Shown here: piece by piece, positions 27,864 through 43,711 of the stretch
Layout: each line of letters begins with the position of its first letter
How positions within the stretch are numbered: position 1 is the stretch's first letter
Source: Candidatus Bathyarchaeia archaeon
GTDB taxonomy: Archaea; Thermoproteota; Bathyarchaeia; Bathyarchaeales; Bathycorpusculaceae
Direction: 5' to 3'
Assembly (NCBI GenBank): GCA_050010755.1
Contig: JBEKKK010000001.1
Span: 128,001-192,000 of the forward strand
Length of the DNA: 64,000 bases
Made by a program: the position numbers and the translations under genes
Notes under the pieces: model-generated
The model's input: only the letters and a program-made list of their open reading frames with translations
Database searches by the model: none
What the model was told of the DNA's origin: nothing

Positions 27864-28223
27864 TTGGGTCAGCATAGAACTTCTTTGGAGATTTTGGCGG
27901 AAATTCTTAGGATAGTCAGGGGTGGTGCCAGAAAGACCAGAATCATGTACCAGGCTAATCTGAGCTTTAGCATGTTGAAGAAGTACTTGGATTACGCGCA
28001 GGAGACTGAATTGGTGGTCTGTCCGGAAAACGGCAGTTGCTATTTTGCCACGCCGAAGGGTCATGAATTTCTGGAGAAGTATGAGAAGTATCTGTTGCGC
28101 AGTAGGCAAGTGGAGGATCAGCTGGAGACCATGGCCAAGGAAAGAGCGATGCTTGAAGAGGGCTACACGAGAAGGCAGAGACGTAAGGATCCATCAGCAG
28201 TTCAGTCTGCATCAGGGCAATAA
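27864..28223 (+). CDS. Winged-helix transcriptional regulator (HTH_45/ArnR1-like)
   Basis: RTSLEILAEIL..GARKTRIMYQANLS...YL...Y.ATPKG. TTG start after GGGGTGA SD. Confidence 0.87.
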   Translation: MGQHRTSLEILAEILRIVRGGARKTRIMYQANLSFSMLKKYLDYAQETELVVCPENGSCYFATPKGHEFLEKYEKYLLRSRQVEDQLETMAKERAMLEEGYTRRQRRKDPSAVQSASGQ

Positions 28224-28283: not shown

Positions 28284-28745
28284 TTGAAGAAACTCTTTGT
28301 TCTTTTAGTTCTCTTTGTTCTCTTGTTGTCCTGTTTGTGTGTTCAGTGTAGAGCTGCGAGTGAGACGGATGCGCAATCGGCTGTTAGTGAGGCTTCGCAG
28401 AGGATTGTTACCTGTTACGGGGAGGTTGCAAACGCGAGCAGTGCAGGGGCGAACGTGTCTGCCCTGCTGCAGGTTTTGAACACTGCTGGTGACCTGTTGT
28501 CTAGGGCTCAGTTGGCTCTTGCCGATGGAGATTTCAATTCGTCATCAGCCCTCGCATTGCAGAGTCAGCAGGCGCTGGTGGGGTTTGATGCTCAGTCTGA
28601 GTCGTTGAGGAGTGCGGCTCTGCACAGTGGTTTCGTGGATTTTTGGGTTGACGTTGTGGGTTCTTCGGTGGGCGCGGTGGCTGTTTTAGTTTTAGGCTTT
28701 TTCGTTTGGCGATTCCTGAGCAAGAAGTATCCGGGGGTCACATGA
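28284..28745 (+). CDS. Secreted helical protein with C-terminal membrane anchor
   Basis: Signal peptide, Ala/Ser-rich helices, C-terminal TM followed by basic residues. ATGA overlap with the next gene. Confidence 0.7.
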   Translation: MKKLFVLLVLFVLLLSCLCVQCRAASETDAQSAVSEASQRIVTCYGEVANASSAGANVSALLQVLNTAGDLLSRAQLALADGDFNSSSALALQSQQALVGFDAQSESLRSAALHSGFVDFWVDVVGSSVGAVAVLVLGFFVWRFLSKKYPGVT

Positions 28746-29359
28746 TGAGCATAGGAAAATACGGGGTCACCTTTCTTATTGTCGTCGTTATCCTGGCTCT
28801 GCTGGTGGCTTCGCCGGCCCTGAGCAAGGCTCTTGTTTATCCTCGGACGGATTTTTTCAGTGAGATGTGGCTTTTGGGTTCGAATCATACGGCTGAGGAT
28901 TATCCGTTCAACTTGAGTAGTGGCCAGAGCTATGATATCTATTTGGGTCTTGGGGACCAGTTGGGTTATTGTGCGTATTATCAGGTTGAGGTTAAGTTTC
29001 GGAATGAGAGTCAGTCGATGCCGAGCAGTCTTGGGCCGGTTGAGGATAGGGTTCCGAGTGACTTGCCATCGTTGTATAATGTGAGCGCGTTTGTAGCGGA
29101 TCAGGGCAGTTGGGAGTTGCCGGTTTCGTTTGGTTTCAACTACGTCTATGATGCGAATGCGAGTGCAGTTAGGTTTGAGAGTTTGACGTTTAATGGTAAC
29201 CTGTTGAGTTTAGCTGGGGAAAGCACGGTTTGGAATAGCACGATGAGCAGGTTTTATGGTGATTTAGTTTTTGAATTATGGTTGTACAATAGTTCGTCGA
29301 GCAGCTTCGTTTATCATGACAGGTTTGTGGATTTGAAGCTGAATATGACTGTGACGTAG
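28742..29359 (+). CDS. DUF1616 domain protein
   Basis: N-terminal TM, FSEMWLLG...AEDYPFNL, Y.V.VK, L.FELWLY motifs typical of DUF1616. Confidence 0.8.
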   Translation: MMSIGKYGVTFLIVVVILALLVASPALSKALVYPRTDFFSEMWLLGSNHTAEDYPFNLSSGQSYDIYLGLGDQLGYCAYYQVEVKFRNESQSMPSSLGPVEDRVPSDLPSLYNVSAFVADQGSWELPVSFGFNYVYDANASAVRFESLTFNGNLLSLAGESTVWNSTMSRFYGDLVFELWLYNSSSSSFVYHDRFVDLKLNMTVT

Positions 29360-29368
29360 GGTTCTCGG

Positions 29369-30142
29369 ATGGGTCAATATTACGTGAGGCCGTATAGAGA
29401 CGGTGATGAAGAGGAGGCTGCAAGGCTCTTCAACCAAAGATATCTTGCCTACGGTGGGTTTGTTCCAAGAACTGGTGAGTATTGGTTGTGGTCCTGTCTG
29501 CATAGGCCTGATGTGAGTAGGGAGGGGGTTTTCTTTGTGTCTGAGGAGGGGGCTCAGAATGTTTGTGGGTATGCTGTTGTTGGAACGACTGGGGAGATTT
29601 GGGAGTTTTGTGCGGGTTGTGATGAAGAGGTTGTTTCCTCGGTGCTTTTGAAGGAAATCGCGAGATACGTTGACGGTTTGGGAATCTCTTCTATGAACAT
29701 AAACGTTCCCGATGATGAGGTTCTGTGCAGGGTTCTTGTTCGAGAAGGGTTTTCGAGAGTTCCGGCTGAGAGAATGTTTGTGAGTACGATGAGCGTCGTC
29801 AATTTGCTTTCAAAATTGGTTGTGGATAGAAAACTTGACAGTGAAGAGGTTAATTTCGTGTTTGACCACGTTCCGTTTGGCGTTGAAAGAATTGTTTCAG
29901 TGAAAGTTCATGATGGCGCTGTGTCGGTTGCTGAGGGTTTGTCAAAGTCTGCGGATGTCACGGTCAGAGTTGAATTCGCTTCTTTCTTGTCAATTCTGTT
30001 CGGAACTGCTGGCATGCGTCGAGAGTTGATTAGAAGAAGGATGCGGGTTAAGCCCTTCTGGAAGATTTCGGAAGCGACGGGTTTTCTTCGCAAGGTGCGT
30101 CTTCAGAACGTTTGGTATTGGCCCTTGAGCGATTTTGGTTGA
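29369..30142 (+). CDS. GNAT acyltransferase with C-terminal SCP2-like domain (Eis-like fragment)
   Basis: VRPYRDGDEE, PRTGEYWLW...RPD, GYAVV, C-terminal V.DG.V.V...ADVTV......L SCP2-like pattern. Confidence 0.68.
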   Translation: MGQYYVRPYRDGDEEEAARLFNQRYLAYGGFVPRTGEYWLWSCLHRPDVSREGVFFVSEEGAQNVCGYAVVGTTGEIWEFCAGCDEEVVSSVLLKEIARYVDGLGISSMNINVPDDEVLCRVLVREGFSRVPAERMFVSTMSVVNLLSKLVVDRKLDSEEVNFVFDHVPFGVERIVSVKVHDGAVSVAEGLSKSADVTVRVEFASFLSILFGTAGMRRELIRRRMRVKPFWKISEATGFLRKVRLQNVWYWPLSDFG

Positions 30143-30154
30143 GGATGCAGGAGA

Positions 30155-30979
30155 ATGAGTGAACCGTATTCTTGCCGTCCCTTTCGTAATGGCGACGAAG
30201 AGCAAGTTCAGGAACTTATGAAGACTATCTTCAGTAGGTTCATGGGTGGGGATTATTGGAGTTGGAAGTATCCGCTTAATCCTGGGTTCGATCCGTCTTT
30301 GGTGGTGGTTGCGGAAAAAGATGGCAGAATAATTGGGTGCAATCACTGGTTGCGGAGGAGGCTCAAGATCGATAGTGCTCGTGAAGTTGGTGCTGGTTTG
30401 GGTGCGGACGTTGCGGTGGCTCCTGACTTTAGGAGTATGGGGGTTGGTAAGGCGTTGTTGAAGTTTGTCAGGACGGCGAATCCTTCTAAGAGGTTTGAGG
30501 TGATGTACATTTTTGCTGACCCGGAGTTGGCAAAGCGTTTTCATTCACCAGTAGCGGGTTATGTTCCTGCGCCCGATCGGACGGTTGCCTTTACGAAGAT
30601 TTTGAGCTGGGTGAAGGTCAGAGAGAGCGTTTCTTCTTTCAACAAGAAGATTTCCGAAGGTTCTGGGAAAGAATCTCTCGGGGGCGGTGTTAGTGTTCTT
30701 TTCAGGGTTGCTTCTGCTCCTCCGCTCTTTCTGGGTATTAGAAAGGGAGGCGTGGACGTTTATGAGAAGGAAGCGGCGCTGGAGCGGCGAGCGGACGTTA
30801 CGATTATCGGCGACGCGACGACTTTGAGCAGTCTTAAGGAAGGGGGAAGTGGCATGTGGCCGATGGTGAAGGCTTTGTTGGCGGGGAGGCTCAAGTTGAG
30901 GGGTAAGCCTTGGAAGTTGTGGTCTGTTTATAGGAATTTTTGGGTTTTTAGAGAGGTTTTCGGTGGGAAAATTACGTAG
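30155..30979 (+). CDS. GNAT acyltransferase with C-terminal SCP2-like domain (Eis-like)
   Basis: VVAEKDGRIIG, DVAVAPDFRSMGVGKALL acyl-CoA motif, ADVTIIGD...KALLAGRLKLRG SCP2-like end. Confidence 0.78.
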   Translation: MSEPYSCRPFRNGDEEQVQELMKTIFSRFMGGDYWSWKYPLNPGFDPSLVVVAEKDGRIIGCNHWLRRRLKIDSAREVGAGLGADVAVAPDFRSMGVGKALLKFVRTANPSKRFEVMYIFADPELAKRFHSPVAGYVPAPDRTVAFTKILSWVKVRESVSSFNKKISEGSGKESLGGGVSVLFRVASAPPLFLGIRKGGVDVYEKEAALERRADVTIIGDATTLSSLKEGGSGMWPMVKALLAGRLKLRGKPWKLWSVYRNFWVFREVFGGKIT

Positions 30980-30989
30980 ATGAGGGGTT

Positions 30990-32279
30990 GTGGGTATGCG
31001 TCGGCTGTTTTGGAATAGGAAGATTCAGAAGGCTTCGGAATCTGAGCTTAGGCGGTTGCAGCTTAGGCTTCTCAGGGCACAGGTGCGTTTTGTTTATAAG
31101 AACAGTAGGTTTTACAGGAGGAAGTTCAGGGAGAGCGGAGTGGGCAATCCGCAGATTAGAAGTTTGGAGGATGTTCAGAAGTTGCCGTTCGTTAGTCGGG
31201 AGGAGCTTGAGAGGGGGTTTTGGGATGTGGTTTCGGTTCCGTTTTCTGATGTTTCGACGATTCGGATGTCGAGTGGGAGCGTTGGGTTGCCGTTGGCGAT
31301 TGCTCATACTCAGGGGGATGTTGAGGGTTTCGCTGAGGCGAGTGCTAGGAAGCTGAGTTATCATGGGGTCACGGGGAAGGATGTTGTGCAGGTCACGTCT
31401 GCTTATGGCTTGTGGCAGGGGGCCTGGTCGGTTCATTGGGGTGCTGAGAAGATTGGCGCCTGCACCATTCCCGTTGGGGCTGGGGATACGGAGAGGCAGA
31501 TTCGCATCATTAGACAGTTCAAGCCGACCGTTCTGTACGGTGTGACGAATTATCATTTGAGAATAGCCGAAGTTGCTAAGTCGATGGGCCAGTCTCTGAG
31601 GGATAGCAATCTGTGGTTGGGTGTTTGCGTGGCTGAGAGGCCGACTAAGCAGCAGGTTGAGGTTTTGAAGAGAGAGTTCGGTTATGAGAAGGTGGCGCTG
31701 GATTATGGGGCTACGGAGTTTCCGGGGTTTTCTGTTAATTGTGATTGCAGTGATTTTCATCATGTTTGGGCGGATTATTATTTGGTTGAGGTTGTGGATC
31801 CGCGGACGCATGAGCTTTGTGGGGAAGGCGAGAAGGGCGAGCTAGTCCTTACGAGCCTTCAGAGGAAAGGGTTTCCGTTGGTTAGGTATCTTTCTCGGGA
31901 TGTTACGACTTTCATGGGGTTCGGAGAGTGTGAGTGTGGGATGTCGCATCCTAGGGTTGGGACGGAGATTGACCGCGAGGATTTCATGATTAAGATTCGG
32001 GGAGTGCCGGTTTTTCCGAGTCAGATAGAGATTATTCTGGAGAGGTTTCTGGAATTGGTGGGTAATTGTCAGATAATGGTTGATAAGCGTACGCCGCAGC
32101 AGGAGGCCAGTTTGAAGGTTGAGATGCGGGAATCTCTAGGGCAGGATGATAAGAGGTCTTTGGCGTTCCAGATTGTTGAAGAAGTGAAGAACAGGGTGGG
32201 TGTGAGCTTTAATGATGTGGTTTTTGTTCCTGCGGGAACTTTTGATGTGAAGTATAAGAAATCCCTCGTAATCAGTTGA
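30990..32279 (+). CDS. Phenylacetate-CoA ligase family (PaaK-like) acyl-CoA ligase, divergent
   Basis: S.FYRRK, LPF, SSGSVG P-loop, IPVGAGDTERQI, YGATE, EVVDP, GELVLTSL....PLVRY, IRGV.VFPSQIE. Confidence 0.88.
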   Translation: MGMRRLFWNRKIQKASESELRRLQLRLLRAQVRFVYKNSRFYRRKFRESGVGNPQIRSLEDVQKLPFVSREELERGFWDVVSVPFSDVSTIRMSSGSVGLPLAIAHTQGDVEGFAEASARKLSYHGVTGKDVVQVTSAYGLWQGAWSVHWGAEKIGACTIPVGAGDTERQIRIIRQFKPTVLYGVTNYHLRIAEVAKSMGQSLRDSNLWLGVCVAERPTKQQVEVLKREFGYEKVALDYGATEFPGFSVNCDCSDFHHVWADYYLVEVVDPRTHELCGEGEKGELVLTSLQRKGFPLVRYLSRDVTTFMGFGECECGMSHPRVGTEIDREDFMIKIRGVPVFPSQIEIILERFLELVGNCQIMVDKRTPQQEASLKVEMRESLGQDDKRSLAFQIVEEVKNRVGVSFNDVVFVPAGTFDVKYKKSLVIS

Positions 32280-32325
32280 CGGTGCTTGCGTTTCTGGGGT
32301 TTCGGAGCGGGGAAGAGTTAGGAAT

Positions 32326-33603
32326 ATGTTGTTCTGTGTTTCGGTTTCTCACAAGCAGACGAGTCTTTCTATGTTGGAGTCTCTCAGTTTTCCGAGTGGG
32401 GAGGAGGCTGCGAGAGCGTTTTGTGAGCAGGGAACGTTGGCTGAGTGTGTGCTTCTTCAGACTTGTCACAGGATTGAGATTTACGGGGTGACTGCTGATT
32501 TTGCGAGGGGCGATGCTGTGGATGTGATTCTCAGGTCTTGGAGTTCTAGGGCGGGTGTGAGTTTTGATGTTTTGAGGAGGGTTTTTGAGTTGTATGATGG
32601 GCGGGAGGCGTTGGCGCATCTTTTTTCTCTTGCCGCTGGGTTGGAGTCTATGGTTGTGGGTGAGGATCAGATTCTGGGGCAGGTGCGTTCGGCTTATGTT
32701 GAGGCGAAGAGGGCGGGGAGTGCTGGTCGGATTCTTGATAAGGTTTTTATGAAGGCGGTGAACACGGGCAGGAGAGTGAGGACTGAGACGGGGATTAATG
32801 AGGGTTCGGTTTCGGTGAGTTCTGCGGCGGTTGATTTGGCTGTGAAGGAGCTTGGGGGTCTCGAGTCGGCGACGGCGCTGGTCATCGGTGCCGGAGAGGC
32901 GGGTTCTATCGCGGCGGAGACGCTTCAGAGGAGGGGTGCTAAACGGATTGTGGTTGCGAATCGAACGCGGGAGAGGGGTGAGGCTTTGGCCCTGAAGGTT
33001 TCTGGGAGGTCGATAGGTCTGGACGGTGTGTATGATGAGATTCCGAGCGTGGATCTAGTGATTTCTGCGGTGTCGGTGAAGAAGCCGATTTTGGAAGCGA
33101 GCCGTCTTAGAAGCGCGTTGGGGAAGAGTAGTAGTGGTAAGCGTTTGCTTGTTGTGGATATTTCTCAGCCGCGGGCTGTGGATGCTAAGGCTGGTTCGAT
33201 TCGTGGTCTTGTGTTGAGGAATATTGAGGATCTGAAAGGGGTTGTGGAGGATAGCATTCGGAGGAGGCGGGGTGAGGCGGAGAGGGCGAGGTTGTTGGTT
33301 GGTGAGGAGCTTGCTCGGTTTGAGCAGGAGTTGTCGTGGATTCTTGTGTTGCCTTTGGCTTCGGAGATTTATCGGAGTTTGGAGGTTGTTAGGAGGAGTG
33401 AGTTTGAGAGGGCTGTCAGGAAGATGGGTGAGTCTGATGGGCGGAAGATTTCGGTGATGGAGAGGTTTTCGAAGGAGTTGGTGGAGAGGATTATGCAGGT
33501 TCCGATGGAGCGGTTGAAGAGGGCGGCTCTTAACAATGAGGGTGAGTTGCTTTCGGCTGCGGAGAAGCTGTTCAAGAATAACCGGGGAGGCGTTGCAGAT
33601 TGA
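32326..33603 (+). CDS. hemA: Glutamyl-tRNA reductase
   Basis: TCHR.E.Y catalytic Cys motif, GLESMVVGEDQILGQV, VRTETGI, GAGEAG NADPH motif, ANRT, DISQPR. Confidence 0.95.
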   Translation: MLFCVSVSHKQTSLSMLESLSFPSGEEAARAFCEQGTLAECVLLQTCHRIEIYGVTADFARGDAVDVILRSWSSRAGVSFDVLRRVFELYDGREALAHLFSLAAGLESMVVGEDQILGQVRSAYVEAKRAGSAGRILDKVFMKAVNTGRRVRTETGINEGSVSVSSAAVDLAVKELGGLESATALVIGAGEAGSIAAETLQRRGAKRIVVANRTRERGEALALKVSGRSIGLDGVYDEIPSVDLVISAVSVKKPILEASRLRSALGKSSSGKRLLVVDISQPRAVDAKAGSIRGLVLRNIEDLKGVVEDSIRRRRGEAERARLLVGEELARFEQELSWILVLPLASEIYRSLEVVRRSEFERAVRKMGESDGRKISVMERFSKELVERIMQVPMERLKRAALNNEGELLSAAEKLFKNNRGGVAD

Positions 33604-34871
33604 CCAGGTCTGAGAGGCTTTTTGCCAGGGCGAAGAAGTTGATTCCAGGCGGTGTGAACAGTCCGGTTCGGGCTTTTTCGCCTTATCCGTTTTTCACGAA
33701 GTCTGCGAAGGGTTCGAAGCTTACGGATGTGGATGGTGTGGAGTTTGTTGATTATTGTTTGGGTTATGGGCCTTTGATTTTGGGGCATGCTGATGAGCGG
33801 GTTATGGGTGCTGTTCGGGAGCAGTTGGGTCGTGGGTCGTTGTTTGGTACGCCTTCCGAGGGGGAGGTGGAGCTTGCTGAGTTGATCTGTAAGCTTGTGC
33901 CTTCGGCTGAGATGGTTCGGCTTGTGAGCACGGGTGGGGAGGCGACGATGAGTGCGATTAGGCTTGCGAGGGGTTTTACGGGGAGGAAGAAGGTTTTGAA
34001 GTTTGAGGGTTGTTATCATGGGGCTCATGATTGTGTGTTGGTGAAGGCGGGTTCTGGCTTGTTGACGTTCGGGATGCCTGATTCTCTTGGGGTTCCTGAG
34101 GAGACGGCTGGGAACACGGTTGTGGTGCCGTTTAATGATGTTGCTGCTTTCGAGGCGATGGTGAAGAGGGAGCGCCGTGAGCTTGCGGCGGTGATTGTTG
34201 AGCCTGTTATCGGCAACATAGGCGTTGTCCTGCCTAAGGAGGGTTTTCTTGAGGCGTTGCGGGAGATTACGGAGCAGTATGGGGTTGTTCTGGTGTTTGA
34301 TGAGGTGATTACAGGCTTCAGATTAGCCCTGGGTGGGGCTCAGGAGTTTTATGGTGTTAAGCCGGATTTGACGACTCTGGGTAAGATTCTTGGGGGTGGT
34401 TTTCCCTTGGCGGCTTTCGCCGGGCGGGAGGATATCATGCGGATGATTGCGCCTTCTGGAAAAGTGTACCAAGCCGGCACTTTCAGCGGCAATCCGGTCA
34501 GCGTTGCGGCAGGCTTGGCGGTGTTGAGAACCTTGCGGGCTCGGAGGAGCTTCTATTCTATGATGGAGAAGAAATGCGAGGGGCTTGTCAAGCAGCTGAG
34601 GCAGGTTGCGAATGATGCGAGAGTGCAGGTTCAGGTTAACAGTGTCGGTTCGATGTTTCAGATGTTCCTGTCCGAGGAGCCCGTGTTCGACTATGCCAGC
34701 GCAAAGAAGAGTGACAGCAAGAGGTTCATGCAGTTTCATCATGCGCTCCTACAGCATGGAGTTTTCATTCCGCCCTCACAGTTTGAAACCTGCTTCCTAT
34801 CTGCGGCTCACAGCGATGGAGACTTGAAGATGACGATTGAGGCTTACAAGCAGGCTCTCGAGTCAATTTGA
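33600..34871 (+). CDS. hemL: Glutamate-1-semialdehyde 2,1-aminomutase
   Basis: PGGVNSPVRA, YGPLILGH, FEGCYHG, FDEVITGFR, TLGK (PLP Lys), YQAGTFSGNP, PSQFE. Confidence 0.97.
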   Translation: MTRSERLFARAKKLIPGGVNSPVRAFSPYPFFTKSAKGSKLTDVDGVEFVDYCLGYGPLILGHADERVMGAVREQLGRGSLFGTPSEGEVELAELICKLVPSAEMVRLVSTGGEATMSAIRLARGFTGRKKVLKFEGCYHGAHDCVLVKAGSGLLTFGMPDSLGVPEETAGNTVVVPFNDVAAFEAMVKRERRELAAVIVEPVIGNIGVVLPKEGFLEALREITEQYGVVLVFDEVITGFRLALGGAQEFYGVKPDLTTLGKILGGGFPLAAFAGREDIMRMIAPSGKVYQAGTFSGNPVSVAAGLAVLRTLRARRSFYSMMEKKCEGLVKQLRQVANDARVQVQVNSVGSMFQMFLSEEPVFDYASAKKSDSKRFMQFHHALLQHGVFIPPSQFETCFLSAAHSDGDLKMTIEAYKQALESI

Positions 34872-34953
34872 TTATAGCCCTGCAACGCACGCGTTGATTA
34901 TTGTGGTTCCTGTTTGAATTAGCGTTTGGTTCAGGCGTTATGGAGTTGCGATT

Positions 34954-36051
34954 ATGGGTAATCCCGAAGTTTCCGTGGTTGTTGCAACTTACAAGGGTGC
35001 AAATACGCTGAGGTATGTGTTGGAGGGTTTGAGTCAGCAGACTTTTAGGGATTTTGAGGTTGTGGCGGTTGTGAAGCCGAGTGCGGATCAAACTCTGGAG
35101 CTTCTGAGGAAGTATGCGGATCAGCTTGAAATCGAGGTTGTGACTCAGAAGAATGGGAACGTTGTGGACGCCGAACAACTTGGTTTAGAACGTGCTAAGG
35201 GAAGGATAATCGTTTTCTTTGATGATGACGCAGTTCCGAGACCGGATTGCATTGAAGAGCACGTCAAAACTTATGCAGACCAAAGGATAGGCGGTGTGGC
35301 GGGCGACCTGATTCCTTCCACTATAGCTGATGGTGTCGTGAAGGAGCTTGAGGAGGTTGAGGTGCCGCCTTCGCAGTCGGCTAGGACACGTCTTTCGGCG
35401 AGGGTCTGGGATCATCCGGTGGAGGGGCTTGAGCAATATCGCTGCTGCGTGACTAGGTGTGGTTTCATTTGGCATGGGTTTTTGTTGGCGGACAACCCAG
35501 TGGGAAACCTTGTTTATTGGAGAAAAAGGGGAATGGTAAAGTCTTTTCTGGGGCCAGGTGCCAACATGTCTGTTTTGGCCTCAGCAGGAAAAGGCACAGT
35601 GTTTGAGAAGACAGATTACTGGAGAAGAGGCTATGCGTGGGAGCAATTCTTGGCGTGGCAAGTATGGAAAAAGGGGTACTCAATGGTTCTTAATACTAAG
35701 GCGCGGGTGGAGCACATTCTTCTTGACGGGCATCTCACTGGAGGCCTTTATGCAACTAGCGTTAAGAACGCGGCGCCGGGCGAACTGGAGAAAACAGACA
35801 GCGTTGAAAAAGCGCGCGCTATTGGGTATGATCACATCAGGGAGGAGCATCTTCTCTTTTTTCGACTTTATCGCCGAGGAAGTGGGCTTTCGCTGTTTGC
35901 CAAATTCTGTTCCGTAGCAAATGATGCTTTGTATTTCTTTAAGACGGTGAGAAGTCTGCAAGAATCCAAGAATCTCAGGGTTCTGTTCGTTTCAAACTTG
36001 ATTGGTCTGAGATGGTTGTTGTCCGACGCACATGGTGCACGTCTTTCTTGA
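34954..36051 (+). CDS. Glycosyltransferase family 2
   Basis: VSVVVATY, QQTF.DFEV, FFDDDA DxD motif, GANMS. Confidence 0.85.
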   Translation: MGNPEVSVVVATYKGANTLRYVLEGLSQQTFRDFEVVAVVKPSADQTLELLRKYADQLEIEVVTQKNGNVVDAEQLGLERAKGRIIVFFDDDAVPRPDCIEEHVKTYADQRIGGVAGDLIPSTIADGVVKELEEVEVPPSQSARTRLSARVWDHPVEGLEQYRCCVTRCGFIWHGFLLADNPVGNLVYWRKRGMVKSFLGPGANMSVLASAGKGTVFEKTDYWRRGYAWEQFLAWQVWKKGYSMVLNTKARVEHILLDGHLTGGLYATSVKNAAPGELEKTDSVEKARAIGYDHIREEHLLFFRLYRRGSGLSLFAKFCSVANDALYFFKTVRSLQESKNLRVLFVSNLIGLRWLLSDAHGARLS

Positions 36052-36149
36052 AATATTGTTAGGCTGGGAATAACCTTCTAATAACGTCTTCAGGTTTTGT
36101 TGAGGTTGAAAGCACTAGCGCTCAATGCAAAATAGGTGGGTGTGACACT

Positions 36150-37370
36150 GTGAGAATTGCGTTCGTAGATGTGGACATGTCCCTGAGAACTGGGTCGAGG
36201 CGTTTTACTTGTGAGGTGGCATGTCAACTTCAGAGCATGGGGCATGAGGTCGGAATTTTCACGTCTAGGCTGGATACTCAGAGATGTTTCAGAAAGGTCC
36301 TATCTCTTCCTGTTTACGTTGCTTCGCGAAGTTCTTCTCAAGATGGGGGCGCAAGTGGTCTGGGGAGGGTTATCAGGAAGCTCGGAAAGAATGTGATAAT
36401 CAATCTCGCGAGTGAGTATAGATATGATATGGTAGAGACCGATTTCGCTTTGAAGACGAGCGAAAAGATCATGAGCATGGGATATGAAGCAGTTCTTTTT
36501 CAATACCATGGGGAGCATTGGCTTTTTCCAGTCTTCTATCACCTGAATGGAGCGAAAGGTGCCGTGTATCTTAACATGGTTCCTCCGAGGGCTGGCCGGG
36601 AGGCTTTGCCTTTTCAGAAATTGACTATGGAGCGAAGGATATTGGACAGATTGGTCAGTCTGCCTTTTGTCCATAGGTTTGAGAACGCAAGCCTCAGAAA
36701 CATCGGTCTGTTCATTGCCCCGAGCGAGTACCAGCTTCAACAGGCGACGGTGCAAGGTGTGATTGGGCAAAAGAGGGCTGCGGTTGTTCCATTAGGAGTT
36801 GATCATTCTGAGTTTTGTCCAACGGATGAAGAGGAGCCTTTTGCGCTCTATGTGGGACGGATCCATCCTCACAAGTCGCTGGAACTGGCGATGATTTCCA
36901 TGAAGAACAGGGGTTCAGACTATCCATTGGTGATTGCTGGAGATGTTGACCAAAGCAACGTCCAATATGTGGAGAGACTTCTGAGTCTGGCAGATGAATT
37001 GAAAATTTCTGACAGGTTTGAACTGATTCTGCGTCCGTCAGAAAAGCGGATTGTCAGGTTGATGCAGAGTTGTTCAGTTTTCTTGTTTCCAAGCACAATA
37101 GATACTTTTGGACTTGTGGTTCTTGAATCCATGGCTTGTGGAAAACCGGTTGTGGCCTGCAACAGAGGGGGTGTTCCAGAAATAGTCGGAGATGCGGGAT
37201 TATTGGTCGAGCCGGACGTGGCGCAGTGGAAGAGGGCCATGACAAGATTGCAGTCAGATTCTGAGTTTCGGCATGCTTTGGGACGAAAGGCATTGAAAAG
37301 ATCCGAAGCGTATTCATGGAAACATACGACTTGCCAGTTGCTTGAAGCTTTCGGCACTAACTGCGCCTAG
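36150..37370 (+). CDS. Glycosyltransferase family 4
   Basis: VPLGVD, YVGRIHPHK, FPS..DTFGLVVLESMACGKPVV, GGVPEIV. Confidence 0.92.
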   Translation: MRIAFVDVDMSLRTGSRRFTCEVACQLQSMGHEVGIFTSRLDTQRCFRKVLSLPVYVASRSSSQDGGASGLGRVIRKLGKNVIINLASEYRYDMVETDFALKTSEKIMSMGYEAVLFQYHGEHWLFPVFYHLNGAKGAVYLNMVPPRAGREALPFQKLTMERRILDRLVSLPFVHRFENASLRNIGLFIAPSEYQLQQATVQGVIGQKRAAVVPLGVDHSEFCPTDEEEPFALYVGRIHPHKSLELAMISMKNRGSDYPLVIAGDVDQSNVQYVERLLSLADELKISDRFELILRPSEKRIVRLMQSCSVFLFPSTIDTFGLVVLESMACGKPVVACNRGGVPEIVGDAGLLVEPDVAQWKRAMTRLQSDSEFRHALGRKALKRSEAYSWKHTTCQLLEAFGTNCA

Positions 37371-37493
37371 CTGATGTGTGCACACGTACATCATTGGTAT
37401 GATCATTGGGGTTTGAGCCAAAAGTTTCGCTTGTGGAAGGCTTAGTAACCCTGGCAAAATCTTGGAGCCGCACAGATTAGATCGTTAGCAAGG

Positions 37494-38357
37494 GTGTCAA
37501 AATTGCTTTCTGTTGTGATTCCTGCGTTGAACAGTGCGGTAACAATTTCGGACACTCTTTCATCGATTTTCTCGAATGAAACCAGTGGCGGAAGGTTCGA
37601 GGTTCTTCTGGTTGATAATGGAAGTTGTGATGAAACGGTTGAGATAGCAAGAAGGTTTCCTGTGAAGATATTCCACTGCTCAAGAAGAGGCATAGGGCCT
37701 CCGAGAAATTTGGGGATTCAGAAGGCCCGAGGGGACATCGTAATCTTCACGGACTCTGATTGCATAGTCGAAAAAGATTGGATAACAAAGATATCCGCTT
37801 TCTTCAACCGACACTCAGAAGCTGACGGAGTCGGTGGGCCGGTATTTCCCTACCCTTATTGTCAAAATAGGATTCAGGAATTGACTGGAAAACTTTTTGT
37901 GGAAGACCAAGGTTATCCCAGAAGAATCAGGAAAATTCAACCTGGTTCCACGCAGGGGCTTATTTTCGGCTCAAACAGCGCTTACAGGAGAAGCGTGCTT
38001 GTGAAATCTGGTGGCTTCAATGAGCCGGGAGGGTCAAACCTAGAACTCGCGTTGAGGCTTGTTGCTAATGGAAAGAACCTGTTTTTCTATCCTGGCATAA
38101 TAGTGTACCACGTTTTTCCAAGCAACCTTAAGTCTATTTTCAGACAACAATTTAGGTGGGGAGCACAATCGACTCACATGAAGCGGATGCATCACCTTGA
38201 TAAGGGAGCAAGGGAAATCGTTTACATTTCTTACTTTCCTGTTCGGCGTTTGCTTTCTTTACTTTTTCCTGTGGATTTGGAAAAGAAGTTGTTACACTTT
38301 ACTCAGGTGGCGAGTTACGGTTTAGGTCGCGTCTATGGATTTCAGTTAGAATCTTGA
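37494..38357 (+). CDS. Glycosyltransferase family 2
   Basis: SVVIPALN, VDNGSCD, RNLG, FTDSDC, QQFRWG. Confidence 0.9.
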   Translation: MSKLLSVVIPALNSAVTISDTLSSIFSNETSGGRFEVLLVDNGSCDETVEIARRFPVKIFHCSRRGIGPPRNLGIQKARGDIVIFTDSDCIVEKDWITKISAFFNRHSEADGVGGPVFPYPYCQNRIQELTGKLFVEDQGYPRRIRKIQPGSTQGLIFGSNSAYRRSVLVKSGGFNEPGGSNLELALRLVANGKNLFFYPGIIVYHVFPSNLKSIFRQQFRWGAQSTHMKRMHHLDKGAREIVYISYFPVRRLLSLLFPVDLEKKLLHFTQVASYGLGRVYGFQLES

Positions 38358-38446
38358 AGCGATGAATCTGAACCGTGAGATAGAGCCCGTATGATCGGGT
38401 TATGTGAAGCACTTGGAGTATCCGTTTGACATGTTGAGGAGAGAAG

Positions 38447-39529
38447 ATGAAAAGGAGTTTGAATCGTGCTTCAAATGCGGTACGATACGGTGTTCTGTAC
38501 TTGGGAAATTACTCTTTTCTGAAACTTATCTCTCCGAACCCAGATTATGCTGAGGTGAGGGTTACCGAGGGATGTAATAGCAGATGCGTAACGTGTAGGG
38601 CTTGGAAAAATTCGAGAGAAGGTGAATTATCTACTCAGGAAATGATCAGTGCCTTCGAGCAATTGAGAAGAATCGGGGTCGAGTCCATTCGCATCTCTGG
38701 AGGAGAGCCGTTGATTCGATCTGATATTATAGAGTTGATAAAAGAGTGCAAAAGGCTGAAATTTCGACAGATATACCTCGCAACAAACGGCCTTCTGCTT
38801 CATCAGAAGGCTGAAGATCTTGTTGAGGCCGGAGTTACCCATTTTGGCGTTTCGTTAGATGGAATTGAAGAGACTAATGATATGATTCGAGGAGTCCCTG
38901 GAAGTTACGAGAGAGTCTCAGAAGGCATTCGTGCTGTAAAAGGTTCTATGAAGAAAGTGGGGGTTAGCTTTCCTGTAACGGTCTTTACGACCTTGCTGAG
39001 GCAGAATATTCGTGAGGTGCCGCGGCTCTTGAAACTCTGTGAAGATATTGGTGCAAACTGGTGTTTCAGTTTGCTGGATGGGAATCTTGATTTTTTTGAG
39101 GGCGTTGATATTTCAGAATTGGTGGTTAACGATTGGAAAGTCATTGATGAAACCATAGATTATCTGCAGAAGCTATGGAGGGAGAAACCTTGGCTTGTTT
39201 ATTCTGGACCGAACATTCTTGAATATGCCAGAAACTACCTTAAGGGGGTAAACAGGGATGATGATGTTCCGTGCACTCTCGGATACAAGCTGATCTCACT
39301 AGGATCCAGGGGAGAAGTCTATCCCGGATGCTATGTTTTCAAGTCTATCGGAAACATAAGGCATAAGGCACTAGGTGAAATAGTGAAGTCTAAGGAATAC
39401 GCAGCCCTTGCTGAGAAAATGTATCGTGGAGAATGCGCGGGCTGCACCTTCTTCTATGAAGACAACGTTCTAATCAGGAACATGTTTCCAAGAGTGGAAA
39501 GAATAAGAAGTTTAATGAGAAGCAAATGA
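38447..39529 (+). CDS. Radical SAM protein with SPASM/twitch domain
   Basis: CNSRCVTC (CxxxCxxC), SGGEP, TNG, SLDG, and C-terminal C...GEVYPGC...GNI...CAGC. Confidence 0.92.
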   Translation: MKRSLNRASNAVRYGVLYLGNYSFLKLISPNPDYAEVRVTEGCNSRCVTCRAWKNSREGELSTQEMISAFEQLRRIGVESIRISGGEPLIRSDIIELIKECKRLKFRQIYLATNGLLLHQKAEDLVEAGVTHFGVSLDGIEETNDMIRGVPGSYERVSEGIRAVKGSMKKVGVSFPVTVFTTLLRQNIREVPRLLKLCEDIGANWCFSLLDGNLDFFEGVDISELVVNDWKVIDETIDYLQKLWREKPWLVYSGPNILEYARNYLKGVNRDDDVPCTLGYKLISLGSRGEVYPGCYVFKSIGNIRHKALGEIVKSKEYAALAEKMYRGECAGCTFFYEDNVLIRNMFPRVERIRSLMRSK

Positions 39530-40479
39530 ACATGGCTCTTCCACGCACTCTTTTTTTGACGTTTGATGTAGAAGATTTCATCAATGATAGATCAATCAAG
39601 GCTTTGAATTGCATTCTGGAGATGTTGAAAAAGAATAAACTTGGGGCTTTATTCTTTATCACGGGACACATGGCGGAAAAACTTGCCGGGCAGGAAGAGA
39701 CTCTCGGACTTCTTCGCGAACATCAAATAGGCTATCATTCATCATGCCATTCGGTGAGACCTACAATTCTTGAATACACGGATGTGGAGAACTATGATGA
39801 AGCTCTCTTGGAGTCCGAAAAAAGGGAGACTTCACACATAAATCCGCTGACAGGAGAAATTGAAGGAAAGGGCGGAATTCACATCTTGCGAGAGTTATTT
39901 GGGAACAGCAGGATTGAAGCTTTTAGGGCTCCAGATTACTGTTGGGCTCCCCCGCATCTGGAAGCACTGAACAAGTTGGGTTTCCATTATGATTTCTCTA
40001 CAAAAATGGTCCACGAGCCTGCTTCCTACAAGGGTATAACCTTTTACCCGTACCCTATGTGTCATTATTGGAAAGGAAGGTCTAGCTACCTTAGGCTAGC
40101 ACGCTGTGTTGCTGTTAAAAAGACGACTGTTTTGAATTTTCATGATTGGGATTTTGTAAACAGTAAAGCTTGGAATTACTTTTACAGAAACGGTAATCCT
40201 GAAAAGTTGTTCAAGGTTCCTCCCCGAAGCCATGAATCGATGGAAAACATGTTTACCAGCTTTGAGTCCTTTCTGAAAAGGGTCAAGGCTCTTGAAAAGA
40301 CAGGAATAGTCAGAGTCACGCCAAAGCTTGAAAACCCTGGAAAACGCCTTGAGATTAACAGAGTTCCTGTGGAACAGGTGTGCAGAGAAATTACGCGTTG
40401 GTTTAAAGGCGATTATTTCTACCAAATAAGATATCTTAATCAGCACTTCAAAACGTTTTTTGAAGCAGATCACGATTGA
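39526..40479 (+). CDS. Polysaccharide deacetylase (NodB/CE4-like)
   Basis: LTFDVED, IGYHSSCH, FRAP and NFHDW motifs. Confidence 0.85.
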   Translation: MNMALPRTLFLTFDVEDFINDRSIKALNCILEMLKKNKLGALFFITGHMAEKLAGQEETLGLLREHQIGYHSSCHSVRPTILEYTDVENYDEALLESEKRETSHINPLTGEIEGKGGIHILRELFGNSRIEAFRAPDYCWAPPHLEALNKLGFHYDFSTKMVHEPASYKGITFYPYPMCHYWKGRSSYLRLARCVAVKKTTVLNFHDWDFVNSKAWNYFYRNGNPEKLFKVPPRSHESMENMFTSFESFLKRVKALEKTGIVRVTPKLENPGKRLEINRVPVEQVCREITRWFKGDYFYQIRYLNQHFKTFFEADHD

Positions 40480-40594
40480 AATGTCTGCAATTAGGCATTT
40501 GGCAGGTTTAGGGCAATGAAGCCTTAAAAGCGACACCCAAGTGAAACTTGACTGATTAGAGAATGTAATGCTCAAAATATCAGGAGTGATTTTG

Positions 40595-41572
40595 ATGCGT
40601 TTAACATCTAGAATCAAAAAGTCGAAGGCGATGATCCGTCTTGTGAGACCTTTTGAATTGGCTCCTAGTGACCTGATTTATGCAATTTTTGTTAGGGAGG
40701 ATGGGAAGAGTTATGAGATACCTTCCATGAAAGGCCAGCGCTATCTTTCTCTGGATGGTGCCGCTGAGACCTGTCGGAAGACCGTTGAATTGGGCATCCC
40801 CGGGATGATGGTGTATGGCGTTTTGAAGGAGAAGGATGCGGACGGTTCCATAGCTCTCGGGAAGAATGCTTTTCACAGGAAAATCTTTCGAAGACTCAGG
40901 AAGGAGGTTGGTGACGATCTGGTCCTCATATCCAACCTCTGTCTGTGCGATTACACGGCAGAGGAGTTTTGCGTTTACTCAGATAAGGGAAAGGTGCTTA
41001 ATGAGAAGACTGCGGAGATGCTGGGAAAGATGGCTGTAGTTCACGCTGAGGGTGGCGCGGATGTGATTGCTCCTGCGGGAATGTGTGACGGGCAGGTTGG
41101 ATGCATAAGGGCGGCTTTGGATAGAGAGGGCTTTGAAGACGTTGCCGTGATGAGTTACATCAAGACTGACAGCTGTCTGTTTGAGCCTTATTTTGAAGCT
41201 ATGACATTGTCGAATACTCCTAGACGCGGTGTGGATTCCAGCAAGTTCCGAACGGACGTAATCAACGAGAAGATGTTCATGCAAAAGGTCGACTTGGACA
41301 TCAACGAAGGAGCGGACATGGTTATCGTGAAACCCGCGCTGACGAATCTGGATCTTGTGCTCGCAGTCAAACAGAGGTATCCTACGATTCCAATCGCTGC
41401 CTATCAGGTAAGCGGCGAATATGCCATGATCAAGCTGCTGGCGGAGCATACTCGTGTTGATGAGAAGACTCTGTTCTTGGAGACACTAAGTTCCATTAAG
41501 AGGGCAGGAGCAGACATGATACTGACGTATTACGCTCAGGAAGCAGCGAAACTCTTGACTGAGCGAATGTAG
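40595..41572 (+). CDS. hemB: Porphobilinogen synthase (HemB/ALAD) homologue, divergent A-site
   Basis: CLCDY...C Zn triad, GADVIAP..M.DGQV, MSY-K, EGAD...VKPA, AYQVSGEYAMI, KRAGAD.ILTY. Start ATG 40595 after GGAGTGA (track: 40568). Confidence 0.9.
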   Translation: MRLTSRIKKSKAMIRLVRPFELAPSDLIYAIFVREDGKSYEIPSMKGQRYLSLDGAAETCRKTVELGIPGMMVYGVLKEKDADGSIALGKNAFHRKIFRRLRKEVGDDLVLISNLCLCDYTAEEFCVYSDKGKVLNEKTAEMLGKMAVVHAEGGADVIAPAGMCDGQVGCIRAALDREGFEDVAVMSYIKTDSCLFEPYFEAMTLSNTPRRGVDSSKFRTDVINEKMFMQKVDLDINEGADMVIVKPALTNLDLVLAVKQRYPTIPIAAYQVSGEYAMIKLLAEHTRVDEKTLFLETLSSIKRAGADMILTYYAQEAAKLLTERM

Positions 41573-41757
41573 AAAATTCAGGTCAGCATGAGAATCGACG
41601 GTTAATAAATTCTCAGAGTGCGCTATTAGTGATCAGAAATTCTGAAATCTAGTATTAATCTGCAGTGTGCAAAGAATAATTACACCGCCAAACAATCCCT
41701 AGAATGCGCGCCTTACAGTAGAATACTCTCCACATGAAACCCGGGATGGTTACATAA

Positions 41758-42453
41758 TTGCCAAAGAAACGTGTTTTGAGGAAAAGAATGGTTGTGTTTT
41801 CTCCGCATCCTGACGATGGAGCTCTGGGCTGTGGAGGTACCATCGCGAAGAGGGTGAGTGAAGGGTTTGACGTTTATGTGGTCATGTTGACGGATGGCAG
41901 GCATGCGTTTTCCAAGAGGCTAGGGATAAGCTCGGAGCCAAGTCCGGAAGAAGTGAAGCAGATTAGGAGACTAGAATTCACAAAGGCTATGAAGATGCTG
42001 GGCGTGCCCGAGAAAAATCTTCTTTTCTTTGATTTCGAAGATGGAACATTAGAGATGCATAGGGACGAAGCTGAGGAAAAAACAATAGCTATAATTGAAA
42101 AGTATTGGCCTGCTGACATGTATTACCCGTTTAGAAGAGATTGTCATCCGGATCATCAGGCAACGAACTCGATTGTGCGTCACGCACTGCAGCAGCTGAG
42201 GTATGCCGGATCGTATGAATACACTATTACACACACGTACGCGCATCTGGGTCCGTTAATGGAGAGGTTCCTAAGTCTTCTCAAGAGAGACGAGGTTGAA
42301 GAAGACATTTCAGCGTTCCTCAATCTCAAAGAGAGGGTACTTGACGAGTACAAAAGCGTAACGACAATAATCTCAAGTAAGCAAAAAAAACCTCTTCACA
42401 CAAGCGTGAAAAGATTCTTGAAGAAGAAAGAGATATTCCGCGAATCAAAGTAG
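41758..42453 (+). CDS. PIG-L/LmbE family de-N-acetylase
   Basis: PHPDD...GCGG, LTDG, R..E...A...LG, HPDH. Confidence 0.92.
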   Translation: MPKKRVLRKRMVVFSPHPDDGALGCGGTIAKRVSEGFDVYVVMLTDGRHAFSKRLGISSEPSPEEVKQIRRLEFTKAMKMLGVPEKNLLFFDFEDGTLEMHRDEAEEKTIAIIEKYWPADMYYPFRRDCHPDHQATNSIVRHALQQLRYAGSYEYTITHTYAHLGPLMERFLSLLKRDEVEEDISAFLNLKERVLDEYKSVTTIISSKQKKPLHTSVKRFLKKKEIFRESK

Positions 42454-42586: not shown

Positions 42587-43711
42587 ATGATAGAGTTCTT
42601 GTTGTTGCTTTTTGTCTTGCTGTTCGCGCTTTTTGTCGGGATTTATGGGATTTACTTTGTGTGTGTCAGTGTCTGGGCGAAAAGACCTTGGGGAATAACG
42701 ATTGACAACCACTTTCAATCCAAGGTGTCAATTCTCATTCCTGTTCACAATGAAGAAAAAACCATAACGGACAAGCTGGAAAACATCAAGAGCGTCGATT
42801 ATCCCAAAGAAAACATCGAGATAATAGTGACTGACGATGCTTCTGATGATGATACTCTGCAAACAGTGAAAAGTTTCACAGAGCTTAACCCAGTTCTCAA
42901 CATCAGGGTCGTCGAAAATAATGTGCGAATGGGGAAATCGGTTGCTTTGAACGGGGCTCTGCCTTTTTCTTCAAACGATGTGGTCATAGTTTCTGATGCA
43001 GACACCCAGTGGCCTGAGGATATGCTTAGGAAAACGTTGCCTTATCTTGCGGATTCGAAAGTCGGGGCAGTGACTTGCAGAGGGGTGAACAGAAACAGAG
43101 GTGAGACTTGGGTGACAAAGGGTGAAGATACTTACCTTCATTTTACTAATTTGATAAGGCTCGGCGAATCGAAACTCCATTCGACAATAAGGTTTGAAGG
43201 GGGGTTCTGTGCTTTTAAGAAGAACGCTTTTGACAGGTTTGACGCAGAAACTGGCTCGGATGATTCTGGGACGGCGTTAAAGGTGGTTCAGCGGGGATAC
43301 AGAGCAATAATGGTGCCTGACGCGGTTTTCTACACGGCTTTCCCAACTCTTTTTGCCGACAAGTTGAAAACGAAGGCACGCCGCGCGACTCAACTCGTCA
43401 GTCTGTGGACAAAATGCTCGAATCTTCTGTTTCAGAGGCGACTTCTTCTGCCCAAAAAAATCGTCATCCCCGAACTGCTGCTGTTCACTCTTAGTCCATT
43501 GATTCTCGCAGGCTTAATCGTAACAACGGCTTCAGCGATTCTGCTATCCCCGTTCTCACTTTTTACCTTGAGCGTTCTTCTTTTCGTTGGTTGTTTGTTG
43601 ATTCTTGCTCGAAGAACATTCATTGAGGTTCTGGTTGACAATTTCGTTCTGTTCTATTCACTATTGTCAAACGTGCGTGGCAGACGCTATACCGTTTGGG
43701 AAAAATCTTAA
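42587..43711 (+). CDS. Membrane glycosyltransferase family 2 (PgaC/IcaA-like)
   Basis: N-terminal TM, ILIPVHNEE, DDASDD, GKS.ALN, SDAD, SDD, C-terminal TMs. Confidence 0.9.
   Translation: MIEFLLLLFVLLFALFVGIYGIYFVCVSVWAKRPWGITIDNHFQSKVSILIPVHNEEKTITDKLENIKSVDYPKENIEIIVTDDASDDDTLQTVKSFTELNPVLNIRVVENNVRMGKSVALNGALPFSSNDVVIVSDADTQWPEDMLRKTLPYLADSKVGAVTCRGVNRNRGETWVTKGEDTYLHFTNLIRLGESKLHSTIRFEGGFCAFKKNAFDRFDAETGSDDSGTALKVVQRGYRAIMVPDAVFYTAFPTLFADKLKTKARRATQLVSLWTKCSNLLFQRRLLLPKKIVIPELLLFTLSPLILAGLIVTTASAILLSPFSLFTLSVLLFVGCLLILARRTFIEVLVDNFVLFYSLLSNVRGRRYTVWEKS

Follow-up and report, generated by a model that had tools for sequence, protein, structure and literature searches.

What are genes for the first steps of tetrapyrrole synthesis doing in the middle of an archaeal glycan locus? 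The question is raised by a 64,000-nucleotide stretch (the window) from a Candidatus Bathyarchaeia archaeon (assembly GCA_050010755.1, contig JBEKKK010000001.1, positions 128,001 to 192,000), in which positions 29369–42453 hold 13 co-oriented genes, all on the + strand with short gaps, as checked against the open reading frame (ORF) coordinates. They include hemA, hemL and a divergent hemB, together with a ligase, two acyltransferases, glycosyltransferases (GTs) and two deacetylases; the products of the hem genes and of the ligase gene are called here HemA*, HemL*, HemB* and PaaK*. An initial annotation had proposed that 5-aminolevulinate (ALA) made by the first two enzymes is turned into a monopyrrole acid, ligated to CoA and transferred to amino sugars. 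The best explanation of the data below is that a dedicated, transferable module diverts glutamate-derived ALA from tetrapyrroles into a glycan-building locus. We consider it very likely that the genes form a non-tetrapyrrole, ALA-consuming module built around HemB*; for the complete chain from ALA to exported glycan, as set out below, we regard the balance as even. The host probably makes a small pyrrole unit for glycan decoration and not a haem-like cofactor.

The enzymes that open the route are readily recognised in NCBIfam. HemA* (32326–33603, +), a glutamyl-tRNA reductase (GluTR) with all three GluTR domains, scores 352.7 bits against TIGR01035 (equivalog cut-off 209.55), and its catalytic cysteine motif TC(H/N)R is kept in 9/9 cluster copies. 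HemL* (33600–34871, +), a glutamate-1-semialdehyde (GSA) 2,1-aminomutase, scores 611.8 bits against TIGR00713 (equivalog cut-off 527.3), and is 62–85% identical to cluster copies elsewhere and 50–60% identical to canonical copies. HemB* (40568–41572, +) matches PF00490 with 312.2 bits against a cut-off of 24.6, and passes NF006762 marginally (315.4 vs 297).

The remainder of the pathway was sought by a profile search of the whole window genome (G000; 2.19 Mb, 8 contigs, 93.46% complete). A single ALAD match and a single GlutR_N match were obtained, both inside the window, so that hemA and hemB are each present once in the genome. The same search gave no match to Porphobil_deam (hemC, PF01379) or to HEM4 (hemD, PF02602), and the sole TP_methylase (PF00590) match is diphthine synthase (282.4 bits vs a cut-off of 114.3); no uroporphyrinogen methyltransferase was found with this profile. 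As a lineage-matched control, three canonical hem clusters of Bathyarchaeia (45 ORFs in all) were compared with G000 by tblastn: among the canonical hem ORFs only hemA, hemL and hemB found matches, all of them the window copies, and the three canonical hemC ORFs found none. The gene order, coordinates and strand given in the initial annotation all hold against the ORFs, Pfam and NCBIfam, and the absence of hemC, hemD and cysG that it had reported for the 64 kb extends to the whole genome (cbi genes were not searched by name).

To place HemB* among its homologues, 401 genomes sampled from the class were searched. HemB matches were found in 107 of them, and their identities to the window protein are bimodal: copies in eight genomes (G000, G023, G394, G025, G232, G247, G412 and G377) are 62–100% identical, G025 having two copies and G377 a fragment at a contig end, and all other HemB sequences in the sample are at most 47% identical. 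Five further genomes with HemB* were reached via other loci (G022, G417, G418, G419 and G421), giving a total of 13. HemB* is 62–80% identical to the other cluster copies and 37–47% identical to canonical archaeal and bacterial copies. A quick maximum-likelihood tree of 51 rows, from which representatives shorter than 300 or longer than 345 residues and the sequences P0002 and P0006 were excluded, placed the ten HemB* rows in one clade (Shimodaira–Hasegawa-like approximate likelihood ratio test, SH-aLRT, 99). Among 1.84 billion representatives, one full-length member of this clade (77% identical) and some fragments were found, with the rest at most 52% identical.

The distribution of hemC follows the distinction between the two kinds of HemB. 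In the sample of relatives, genomes with canonical HemB have hemC in 6/6 cases. In comparison, 10 of the 13 HemB* genomes gave no hemC match. Six of these have reported completeness of 93% (G000), 96% (G022), 100% (G023), 99% (G025), 92% (G232) and 86% (G377), and the other four (G417, G418, G419 and G421) each contain the HemB* locus as their only hemB locus. The three with hemC (G247, G412 and G394, the last as a 23-residue fragment at a contig end) are exactly those HemB* genomes with a second, canonical hemB right beside hemC. Likewise, hemD was not found in 6/6 genomes tested (G000, G022, G023, G025, G232 and G399). It could be argued that these are ordinary tetrapyrrole genes, that the 6.5% of the genome missing from the assembly, which is not closed, contains hemC and hemD, and that the position in a glycan locus is an accident; after all, hemA, hemL and hemB pass curated NCBIfam cut-offs. 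However, the same gap would have to recur in 10/10 HemB*-only genomes for hemC and in 6/6 for hemD, with no uroporphyrinogen methyltransferase found, and neither the three genomes in which HemB* occurs in addition to a canonical hemB-hemC cluster nor the loss of the canonical lid arginines described below fits ordinary tetrapyrrole synthesis. We regard this explanation as close to refuted.

Residues of HemB* were compared by alignment to solved PDB structures and between nine HemB* and nine canonical sequences. Both Schiff-base lysines are kept in HemB* and align with those of the E. coli, Chlorobium and Pyrobaculum structures; the metal site C-x-C...C (Cys3; CLCDYT...C) is kept in 9/9 HemB* sequences, and the P-side motifs AAYQVSGEY and TY(Y/F)A are retained too. 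Across both clades, 54 of 334 alignment columns are invariant. In 24 columns, however, a residue invariant in 9/9 canonical sequences is absent from 9/9 HemB* sequences. Eleven of these columns fall within residues 198–240, the active-site lid, and four in the metal loop, among them D123N and the change of HGHCG to E-x-x-CV; a further three correspond to N-terminal arginines lost in HemB*, and one to the change Y260N. The lid motif FYGPFR reads (L/M)F-x-P(F/Y)(F/Y) in HemB*, the GPFR arginine being replaced by Phe or Tyr in 9/9 sequences, and G-DR(K/R)xYQ becomes G(V/I)D(S/P)S(K/T)FR, in which D-R is replaced by D-Ser/Pro in 9/9 and YQ by FR. In addition, a single residue is deleted before the A-side lysine.

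The two ALA sites of the family are defined as the A side and the P side (PMC7725820), and according to a review by Jaffe the Km-determining substrate is bonded through its carboxyl to basic residues of the lid (PMC7729013). Set beside this feature of the canonical enzymes, basic lid residues for the carboxyl of the A-side ALA, the GPFR and D-R arginines are not kept in HemB*. The assignment of individual lid residues to the A-side carboxylate is one that we take from the structural literature. In our reading of the alignment, the P side of HemB* would be unchanged and the A side rebuilt. HemB* may thus not simply join two free ALA molecules, in which case the order of steps may differ from that first proposed. 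A tentative extension, possible but in our judgement doubtful, is that HemB* would be the first enzyme of the porphobilinogen-synthase family with a second substrate other than free ALA. ALA would occupy the P site and a tethered ketone the rebuilt A site (ALA amide-linked to a de-N-acetylated sugar, an ALA-CoA thioester, or a keto-sugar), and the pyrrole would be built on the glycan precursor. Were this so, archaeal surface glycans or glycosides would bear a monopyrrole whose ring is formed directly on the glycan precursor.

HemB* may belong to a wider family of non-canonical HemB paralogues, to judge from the sequences of three metagenomic HemB-like proteins, P0003, P0004 and P0006. These are 40–52% identical to HemB*; like it, they have no GPFR arginine and are one residue shorter ahead of the A-side lysine. 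In the tree, P0003 and P0004 fall beside the HemB* clade, P0006 lying outside the tree set. A metagenome scan with P0004 returned 80 loci, of which 79 carry GPFR and are canonical HemB, and L051 was the only HemB* locus. A query with P0003 (E ≤ 1e-85) found no match in 401 genomes of the phylum, a result that is uninformative as it had no positive control.

The rebuilt A side also invites a different proposal, in which HemB* condenses P-side ALA with an A-side keto-sugar supplied by GFO-type dehydrogenases, giving a pyrrole fused or C-linked to the sugar, while the ligase and acyltransferases serve another step. GFO oxidoreductases directly flank HemB* in four related loci (L017, L020, L023 and L025). 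In the window, a GFO/IDH/MocA oxidoreductase gene of sugar dehydrogenase type (43803–44792, +; weak NCBIfam matches to UDP-GlcNAc 3-dehydrogenase and inositol 2-dehydrogenase) overlaps by 4 bases the gene for a 307-aa protein (44789–45712, +), a pair kept in at least five related loci. The 307-aa protein has no Pfam or NCBIfam match, and its AlphaFold 2 (AF2) model, of low confidence (predicted local distance difference test, pLDDT, 68.8), has a generic TIM-barrel fold whose PDB neighbours, at template modelling (TM) scores of 0.43–0.54, include sugar isomerases/epimerases, 3-keto-glycoside lyases and a C-glycoside deglycosidase subunit. Enzymes of the last two kinds work with GFO-type dehydrogenases; the GFO partner is predicted to resemble 3-keto-glycoside enzymes. 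Moreover, no DegT-type aminotransferase was found in the 40 window ORFs scanned with Pfam, so that the usual fate of a 3-keto sugar would be missing. However, the proposal is based on adjacency and this low-confidence model, no GFO gene adjoins HemB* in the loci of G412 and G247, and we know of no precedent. It is considered improbable, and we return to the reading in which HemB* supplies a pyrrole to the ligase and acyltransferases.

That reading, like the one in the initial annotation, predicts that HemB* travels with these genes. The first five genes of the block (29369–34871) are separated by gaps of 12, 10 and 46 bases, followed by a 4-base overlap between hemA and hemL. The order DUF1616 - unk257 - GNAT274 - PaaK* - hemA* - hemL*, in which unk257 and GNAT274 are the acyltransferase genes, recurs in G022, G023, G417 and G421. 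In G399 the run is the same except for a PIG-L gene inserted between DUF1616 and unk257, and in G232, G377 and G419 the run is found without an adjoining DUF1616. The pair hemA*-hemL* stands immediately after the ligase in nine loci. Further downstream the related loci have a GT2, one or two radical SAM genes, CE4 or GFO genes, HemB* and, as a rule, PIG-L, a GFO gene, the 307-aa protein and a GT2. Of the 13 HemB* genomes, 12 have a PaaK* orthologue (54–84% identity); in the remaining one, G025, hemA begins at a contig edge. In the 401-genome sample, PaaK* (E ≤ 1e-100) was found in eight genomes and HemB* in eight, with seven in common; the PaaK* genome in which HemB* was not seen is G399, where the upstream half of the module lies on a 14.8-kb contig that ends before the expected HemB* position. 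A divergent HemB with the ligase, two GNAT-SCP2 proteins, radical SAM enzyme, deacetylases and GTs is accordingly kept in at least 13 Bathyarchaeia genomes, independent of hemC. With hem genes lacking the downstream pathway and a linkage that is conserved in other genomes, both genomic checks agree with the context proposed in the initial annotation, and the combination of findings that it had named as refuting did not arise; its chemistry (plain porphobilinogen, a CoA thioester formed by the ligase, an amino-sugar acceptor) is still a proposal.

Variant loci suggest which gene is the specialised one. G412 has a canonical hemA-hemB-hemL-hemC cluster elsewhere, and its HemB* locus reads PaaK* - unk257 - GNAT274 - B12-radical SAM - HemB*, without hemA or hemL. 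G247, which has a canonical cluster too, has a locus (L038, G247:C5:108000-127900; also L046) that reads PaaK* - hemA* - CE4 - unk257 - GNAT274 - UbiD - two B12-radical SAM - DUF362 - PNP_UDP - HemB*, without hemL, with a MiaB-like radical SAM gene also lying between the GNAT pair and HemB*, and with DUF2206 and GT4 genes flanking it. Genomes in which no canonical pathway was found have both hemA* and hemL* in the locus. G247 thus keeps a cluster hemA* despite its canonical pathway. The ligase, the GNAT pair, HemB* and a radical SAM enzyme form the constant core, and the pattern is the one expected if this core is fed with ALA. This supply pattern argues that HemB*, and not hemA or hemL, would be the specialised step, and the identities to canonical copies, 37–47% for HemB* and 50–60% for HemL*, point the same way. 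The substrates of UbiD enzymes are aromatic and heteroaromatic acids, pyrrole-2-carboxylate among them, and the UbiD gene of G247 would fit a pyrrole intermediate.

The same observations bear on whether the transferred group is a pyrrole at all. ALA itself, or a ring of the C5N type made from it, could be ligated and transferred, with HemB* having only a side role, such as removal of excess ALA, or being non-catalytic here. ALA-CoA ligases do occur in C5N pathways (PMC4525017), and the ligase gene is followed directly by hemA*-hemL* in the nine loci mentioned. However, the linkage of HemB* to PaaK* is as tight as that of any gene (seven genomes in common, each in 8 of 401), HemB* is retained in the module where hemA and hemL have been dropped (G412), and its catalytic lysines and metal site are strongly conserved, as are the 54 columns shared by both clades. 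In addition, no gene for ALA synthase or amide synthase was seen among the locus ORFs in the Pfam scan, a genome-wide search for ALA synthase not having been made. A mere ALA or C5N-like group is improbable on this evidence, and a pyrrole remains our preferred product.

How would such a pyrrole be activated? The ligase (PaaK*, 30990–32279, +; AMP-binding and AMP-binding_C_2 domains) has as its top PDB match phenylacetate-CoA ligase 4r1l (249 bits), and scores 273.2 bits against TIGR02155, well short of the cut-off of 646.3, so that only the PaaK-like fold and domain pair of an adenylate-forming ligase can be assigned. PaaK-type ligases use arylacetic acids and porphobilinogen has a pyrrole-acetic acid arm, which fits the ligase step proposed in the initial annotation. 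The lid changes in HemB* are just as compatible with a route in which ALA is ligated before the ring is closed; either way, a pyrrole would be joined through its acetate arm.

The acyltransferases lie immediately upstream. GNAT274 (274 aa; 30155–30979, +) matches Acetyltransf_9 (E 8.9e-9), Acetyltransf_7 and Acetyltransf_1, with a weak SCP2 match (E 0.0057). Its neighbour unk257 (257 aa; 29369–30142, +) has no Pfam match at E ≤ 0.001, but its AF2 model (pLDDT 84.6) has Mycobacterium tuberculosis Eis (4jd6, E 6.4e-6) as top PDB match, followed by other Eis-like acetyltransferases; SCP2 domains match its C-terminal half separately, and structural neighbours in the Atlas agree. The RxxGxG acyl-CoA motif (R93, G96, G98) is invariant in 8/8 GNAT274 orthologues and absent from unk257 in 10/10 aligned orthologues. 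From these sequences, GNAT274 is the probable catalytic subunit and unk257 a probable non-catalytic partner. A heterodimer of the two was predicted with an ipSAE (interaction prediction score from aligned errors) of 0.88, the best control scoring 0.00. Of 80 solved complexes 58 reached this mark, as did 2 of 110 mismatched pairs; at least 96% of contacts are the same between runs, and the partners have pLDDT values of 88 or more. The fold match, the SCP2 matches and the predicted pairing are consistent with the initial call of two Eis-like GNAT-SCP2 acyltransferases. The SCP2 domains suggest a lipid-bound acceptor.

An acceptor amine could be supplied by the deacetylases. A PIG-L family de-N-acetylase (41758–42453, +; PF02585, 98.6 bits) and a CE4-like polysaccharide deacetylase (39526–40479, +; PF01522, a weak match at 27.4 bits vs a cut-off of 23.1) could expose the amine on a sugar of the GlcNAc type. 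PIG-L adjoins HemB* in related loci (L016, L015/L021, L022, L023 and L025), and CE4 orthologues 47–61% identical are found in L015 and L020. Between hemL and the deacetylase genes lie a GT2 (34954–36051, +), a GT4 (36150–37370, +) and a second GT2 (37494–38357, +) that is kept after hemL in related loci; a further GT2 (42587–43711, +) is kept near HemB*. A radical SAM/SPASM enzyme (38447–39529, +) has AhbD, NirJ and MoaA as nearest NCBIfam models (106–117 bits, far below their cut-offs) and BlsE as top PDB match (59.6 bits); the scores being below cut-offs or nearly tied, it was assigned to none of these.

A candidate carrier of the glycan is encoded just upstream of the acyltransferases. The DUF1616 membrane protein (28706–29359, +) has eight N-x-S/T sequons in 217 aa where 1.9 are expected from its composition, a density of 3.7 per 100 aa, whereas the proteins of the window have 0.61. 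Its orthologues in six related loci have 4–9 sequons each, and the gene lies upstream of the GNAT pair in L016, L044, L045, L047 and L048. The protein may be a glycoprotein that carries the modified glycan.

The wider surroundings are also those of a glycan locus, which by Pfam scan of the ORFs occupies 24.6–64 kb of the window, after a first 24 kb of housekeeping genes. It contains at least eight GTs and, besides the module, more GT2 and GT4 genes, GFO-type sugar dehydrogenases, a hexapeptide acyltransferase, DUF2206 and a second CE4, and it reaches up to a Wzx-type flippase (62913–64000) at the window end.

The product need not be a surface polymer. A soluble or secreted pyrrole-bearing glycoside could be built in the manner of mycothiol or bacillithiol, which use a GT, a PIG-L enzyme, a ligase and a two-GNAT acyltransferase; MshD, of the mycothiol pathway, has one active and one inactive GNAT domain. 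The top NCBIfam models of the PIG-L gene are BshB1, BshB2 and MshB, and those of the GT4 gene MshA and BshA, and in G247 tailoring genes of a small-molecule type (UbiD, two B12-radical SAM, DUF362 and PNP_UDP) lie between the GNATs and HemB*. However, the Msh and Bsh scores are far below the cut-offs (70.9 vs 182.5 and 94.7 vs 462.5), the window locus has its many GTs, the flippase, DUF2206 and the sequon-rich DUF1616 protein, and the G247 locus is itself flanked by DUF2206 and GT4. We think a soluble glycoside rather unlikely, and favour a surface glycan as the destination.

The gene content, the absence of the downstream pathway, the conserved linkage and the residue pattern are observed; from them we infer each chemical step, and the acceptor, as follows. 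HemA* and HemL* would convert Glu-tRNA to ALA. HemB*, as a neofunctionalised paralogue, would form a porphobilinogen-like monopyrrole from one ALA in the unchanged P site and a partner in the rebuilt A pocket. The PaaK-like ligase would activate a carboxyl, either that of the acetic-acid arm of the pyrrole or that of ALA before ring formation. The GNAT-SCP2 heterodimer, one subunit with the acyl-CoA motif and one without, would move the acyl group to an amine freed by PIG-L and CE4 on a sugar that is probably lipid-linked. The radical SAM enzyme would tailor the product, and the glycosyltransferases and flippase would assemble and export it.

Several points weigh against this scheme. Four genomes of the window's own genus are without hemA, hemB and hemC and without the whole module, which is therefore accessory and dispensable. 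The HemB* genomes are related, coming from three families, and the co-occurrence counts given above therefore overstate independence. Three HemB* copies have frame damage (one TGA in G412, G412:C1:2273497-2274471; one TAA in G025:C49, 4579-5550; and in G421 a gene split over two frames), and two GNAT274 copies also have a stop or frame break; broken orthologues are further recorded at L025 10001-10979, L047 6720-7540 and L048 10407-11223. Such stops and frame breaks may be assembly errors, or may signal decay of the module. As for the chemistry, the lid changes are such that HemB* may not make porphobilinogen at all. Conversely, fresh basic residues are found close by within the lid (PR(R/K)G, SSK and FR), so that a carboxylate could still bind, and with it ordinary porphobilinogen synthesis could be retained. 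The predicted heterodimer, for which our own shallow alignments were used, may echo solved Eis structures, with their tandem GNAT domains, that the model has learnt. Glycan loci commonly contain GNATs, PaaK/CapK-like ligases and deacetylases, which could here have roles in unrelated steps, and some variant loci look more like small-molecule pathways.

Some further features of the locus were noted. Three FemAB-like Acetyltransf_6 genes lie in its distal part (53853–54959, 60576–61703 and 61707–62858). Enzymes of this family often use aminoacyl-tRNA as substrate, and the locus would thus pair a Glu-tRNA-consuming HemA with possible tRNA-dependent transferases. Near them are DUF2206 (51467–53584) and DUF362 (58439–59338) genes, both of which recur at the G247 locus. 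Two HTH_45 winged-helix regulator genes (26935–27270 and 27831–28223) are found just upstream of the locus on the same strand. Between 28000 and 36000 the GC skew of the + strand is very strong (0.28–0.48), and the G+C content is 0.48–0.53, compared with 0.42–0.48 in the remaining glycan locus, which suggests a mosaic origin of the GNAT-ligase-hemA-hemL block. The skew yields long spurious antisense ORFs, such as that at 30972–31811 on the - strand. The source DNA of the related material is peat and wetland metagenomes, where the host organisms are abundant, uncultured archaea.

Porphobilinogen synthase is regarded as committed to tetrapyrrole synthesis, and haem or B12 capacity in metagenome-assembled genomes is routinely scored by its presence. 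Here hemA, hemL and hemB pass curated cut-offs in genomes in which the later tetrapyrrole genes were not found, and calls of pathway completeness for Bathyarchaeia made in this way would mislead. If the proposal is right, archaeal glycans or glycosides decorated with a monopyrrole or another ALA-derived group would represent a new class of glycan modification, and HemB* a new activity in an enzyme family that has been studied intensively. Being small and conserved, the module is amenable to heterologous expression.

We found no published precedent for a HemB paralogue outside tetrapyrrole synthesis in the literature searched, which did not cover most subscription journals and supplementary files. 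Compared with canonical HemB (ALAD, PF00490), HemB* is alike in family, fold, both lysines, the Cys3 site and the P-side motifs, at the 37–47% identity noted above. It differs in having no linkage to hemC or hemD, in occurring in genomes without these genes and as a second copy where a canonical hemB exists, and in its replaced lid arginines, the residue missing ahead of the A-side lysine and the lost N-terminal arginines.

The logic of removing an acetyl group and acylating the freed amine anew is known from the synthesis of mycothiol, bacillithiol and lipid A (the PIG-L enzymes MshB and BshB, a ligase, and the two-GNAT MshD). The module resembles the mycothiol and bacillithiol pathways in having a PIG-L enzyme, a GT4, a ligase and a GNAT pair with the acyl-CoA motif in one member only. 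However, the ligase there is a cysteine ligase and here is PaaK-like, the GNATs here are separate proteins each with an SCP2 domain, and the scores against the Msh and Bsh models are, as stated, far below cut-off. Eis likewise combines GNAT with a C-terminal SCP2 domain and is the best structural match, but one Eis chain of about 400 aa contains two GNAT domains and one SCP2, whereas here two chains of about 260 aa, each with one GNAT and one SCP2, are predicted to pair.

Among known systems that divert ALA, the one closest to this module makes the C5N unit of actinomycetes, with a cyclizing ALA synthase, an ALA-CoA ligase and an amide synthase (PMC4525017). The C5N pathway likewise sends ALA into a non-tetrapyrrole moiety by means of a small gene set, with an adenylate-forming ligase, inside a larger biosynthetic cluster. 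The two differ in the source of ALA (ALA synthase there, the C5 route of GluTR and GSA aminomutase here), in the ring (a cyclopentenone there, an expected pyrrole from a HemB paralogue here), in the transfer enzyme (an amide synthase vs a GNAT type), in the host (actinomycetes vs an archaeon) and in the context, which here is a glycan locus.

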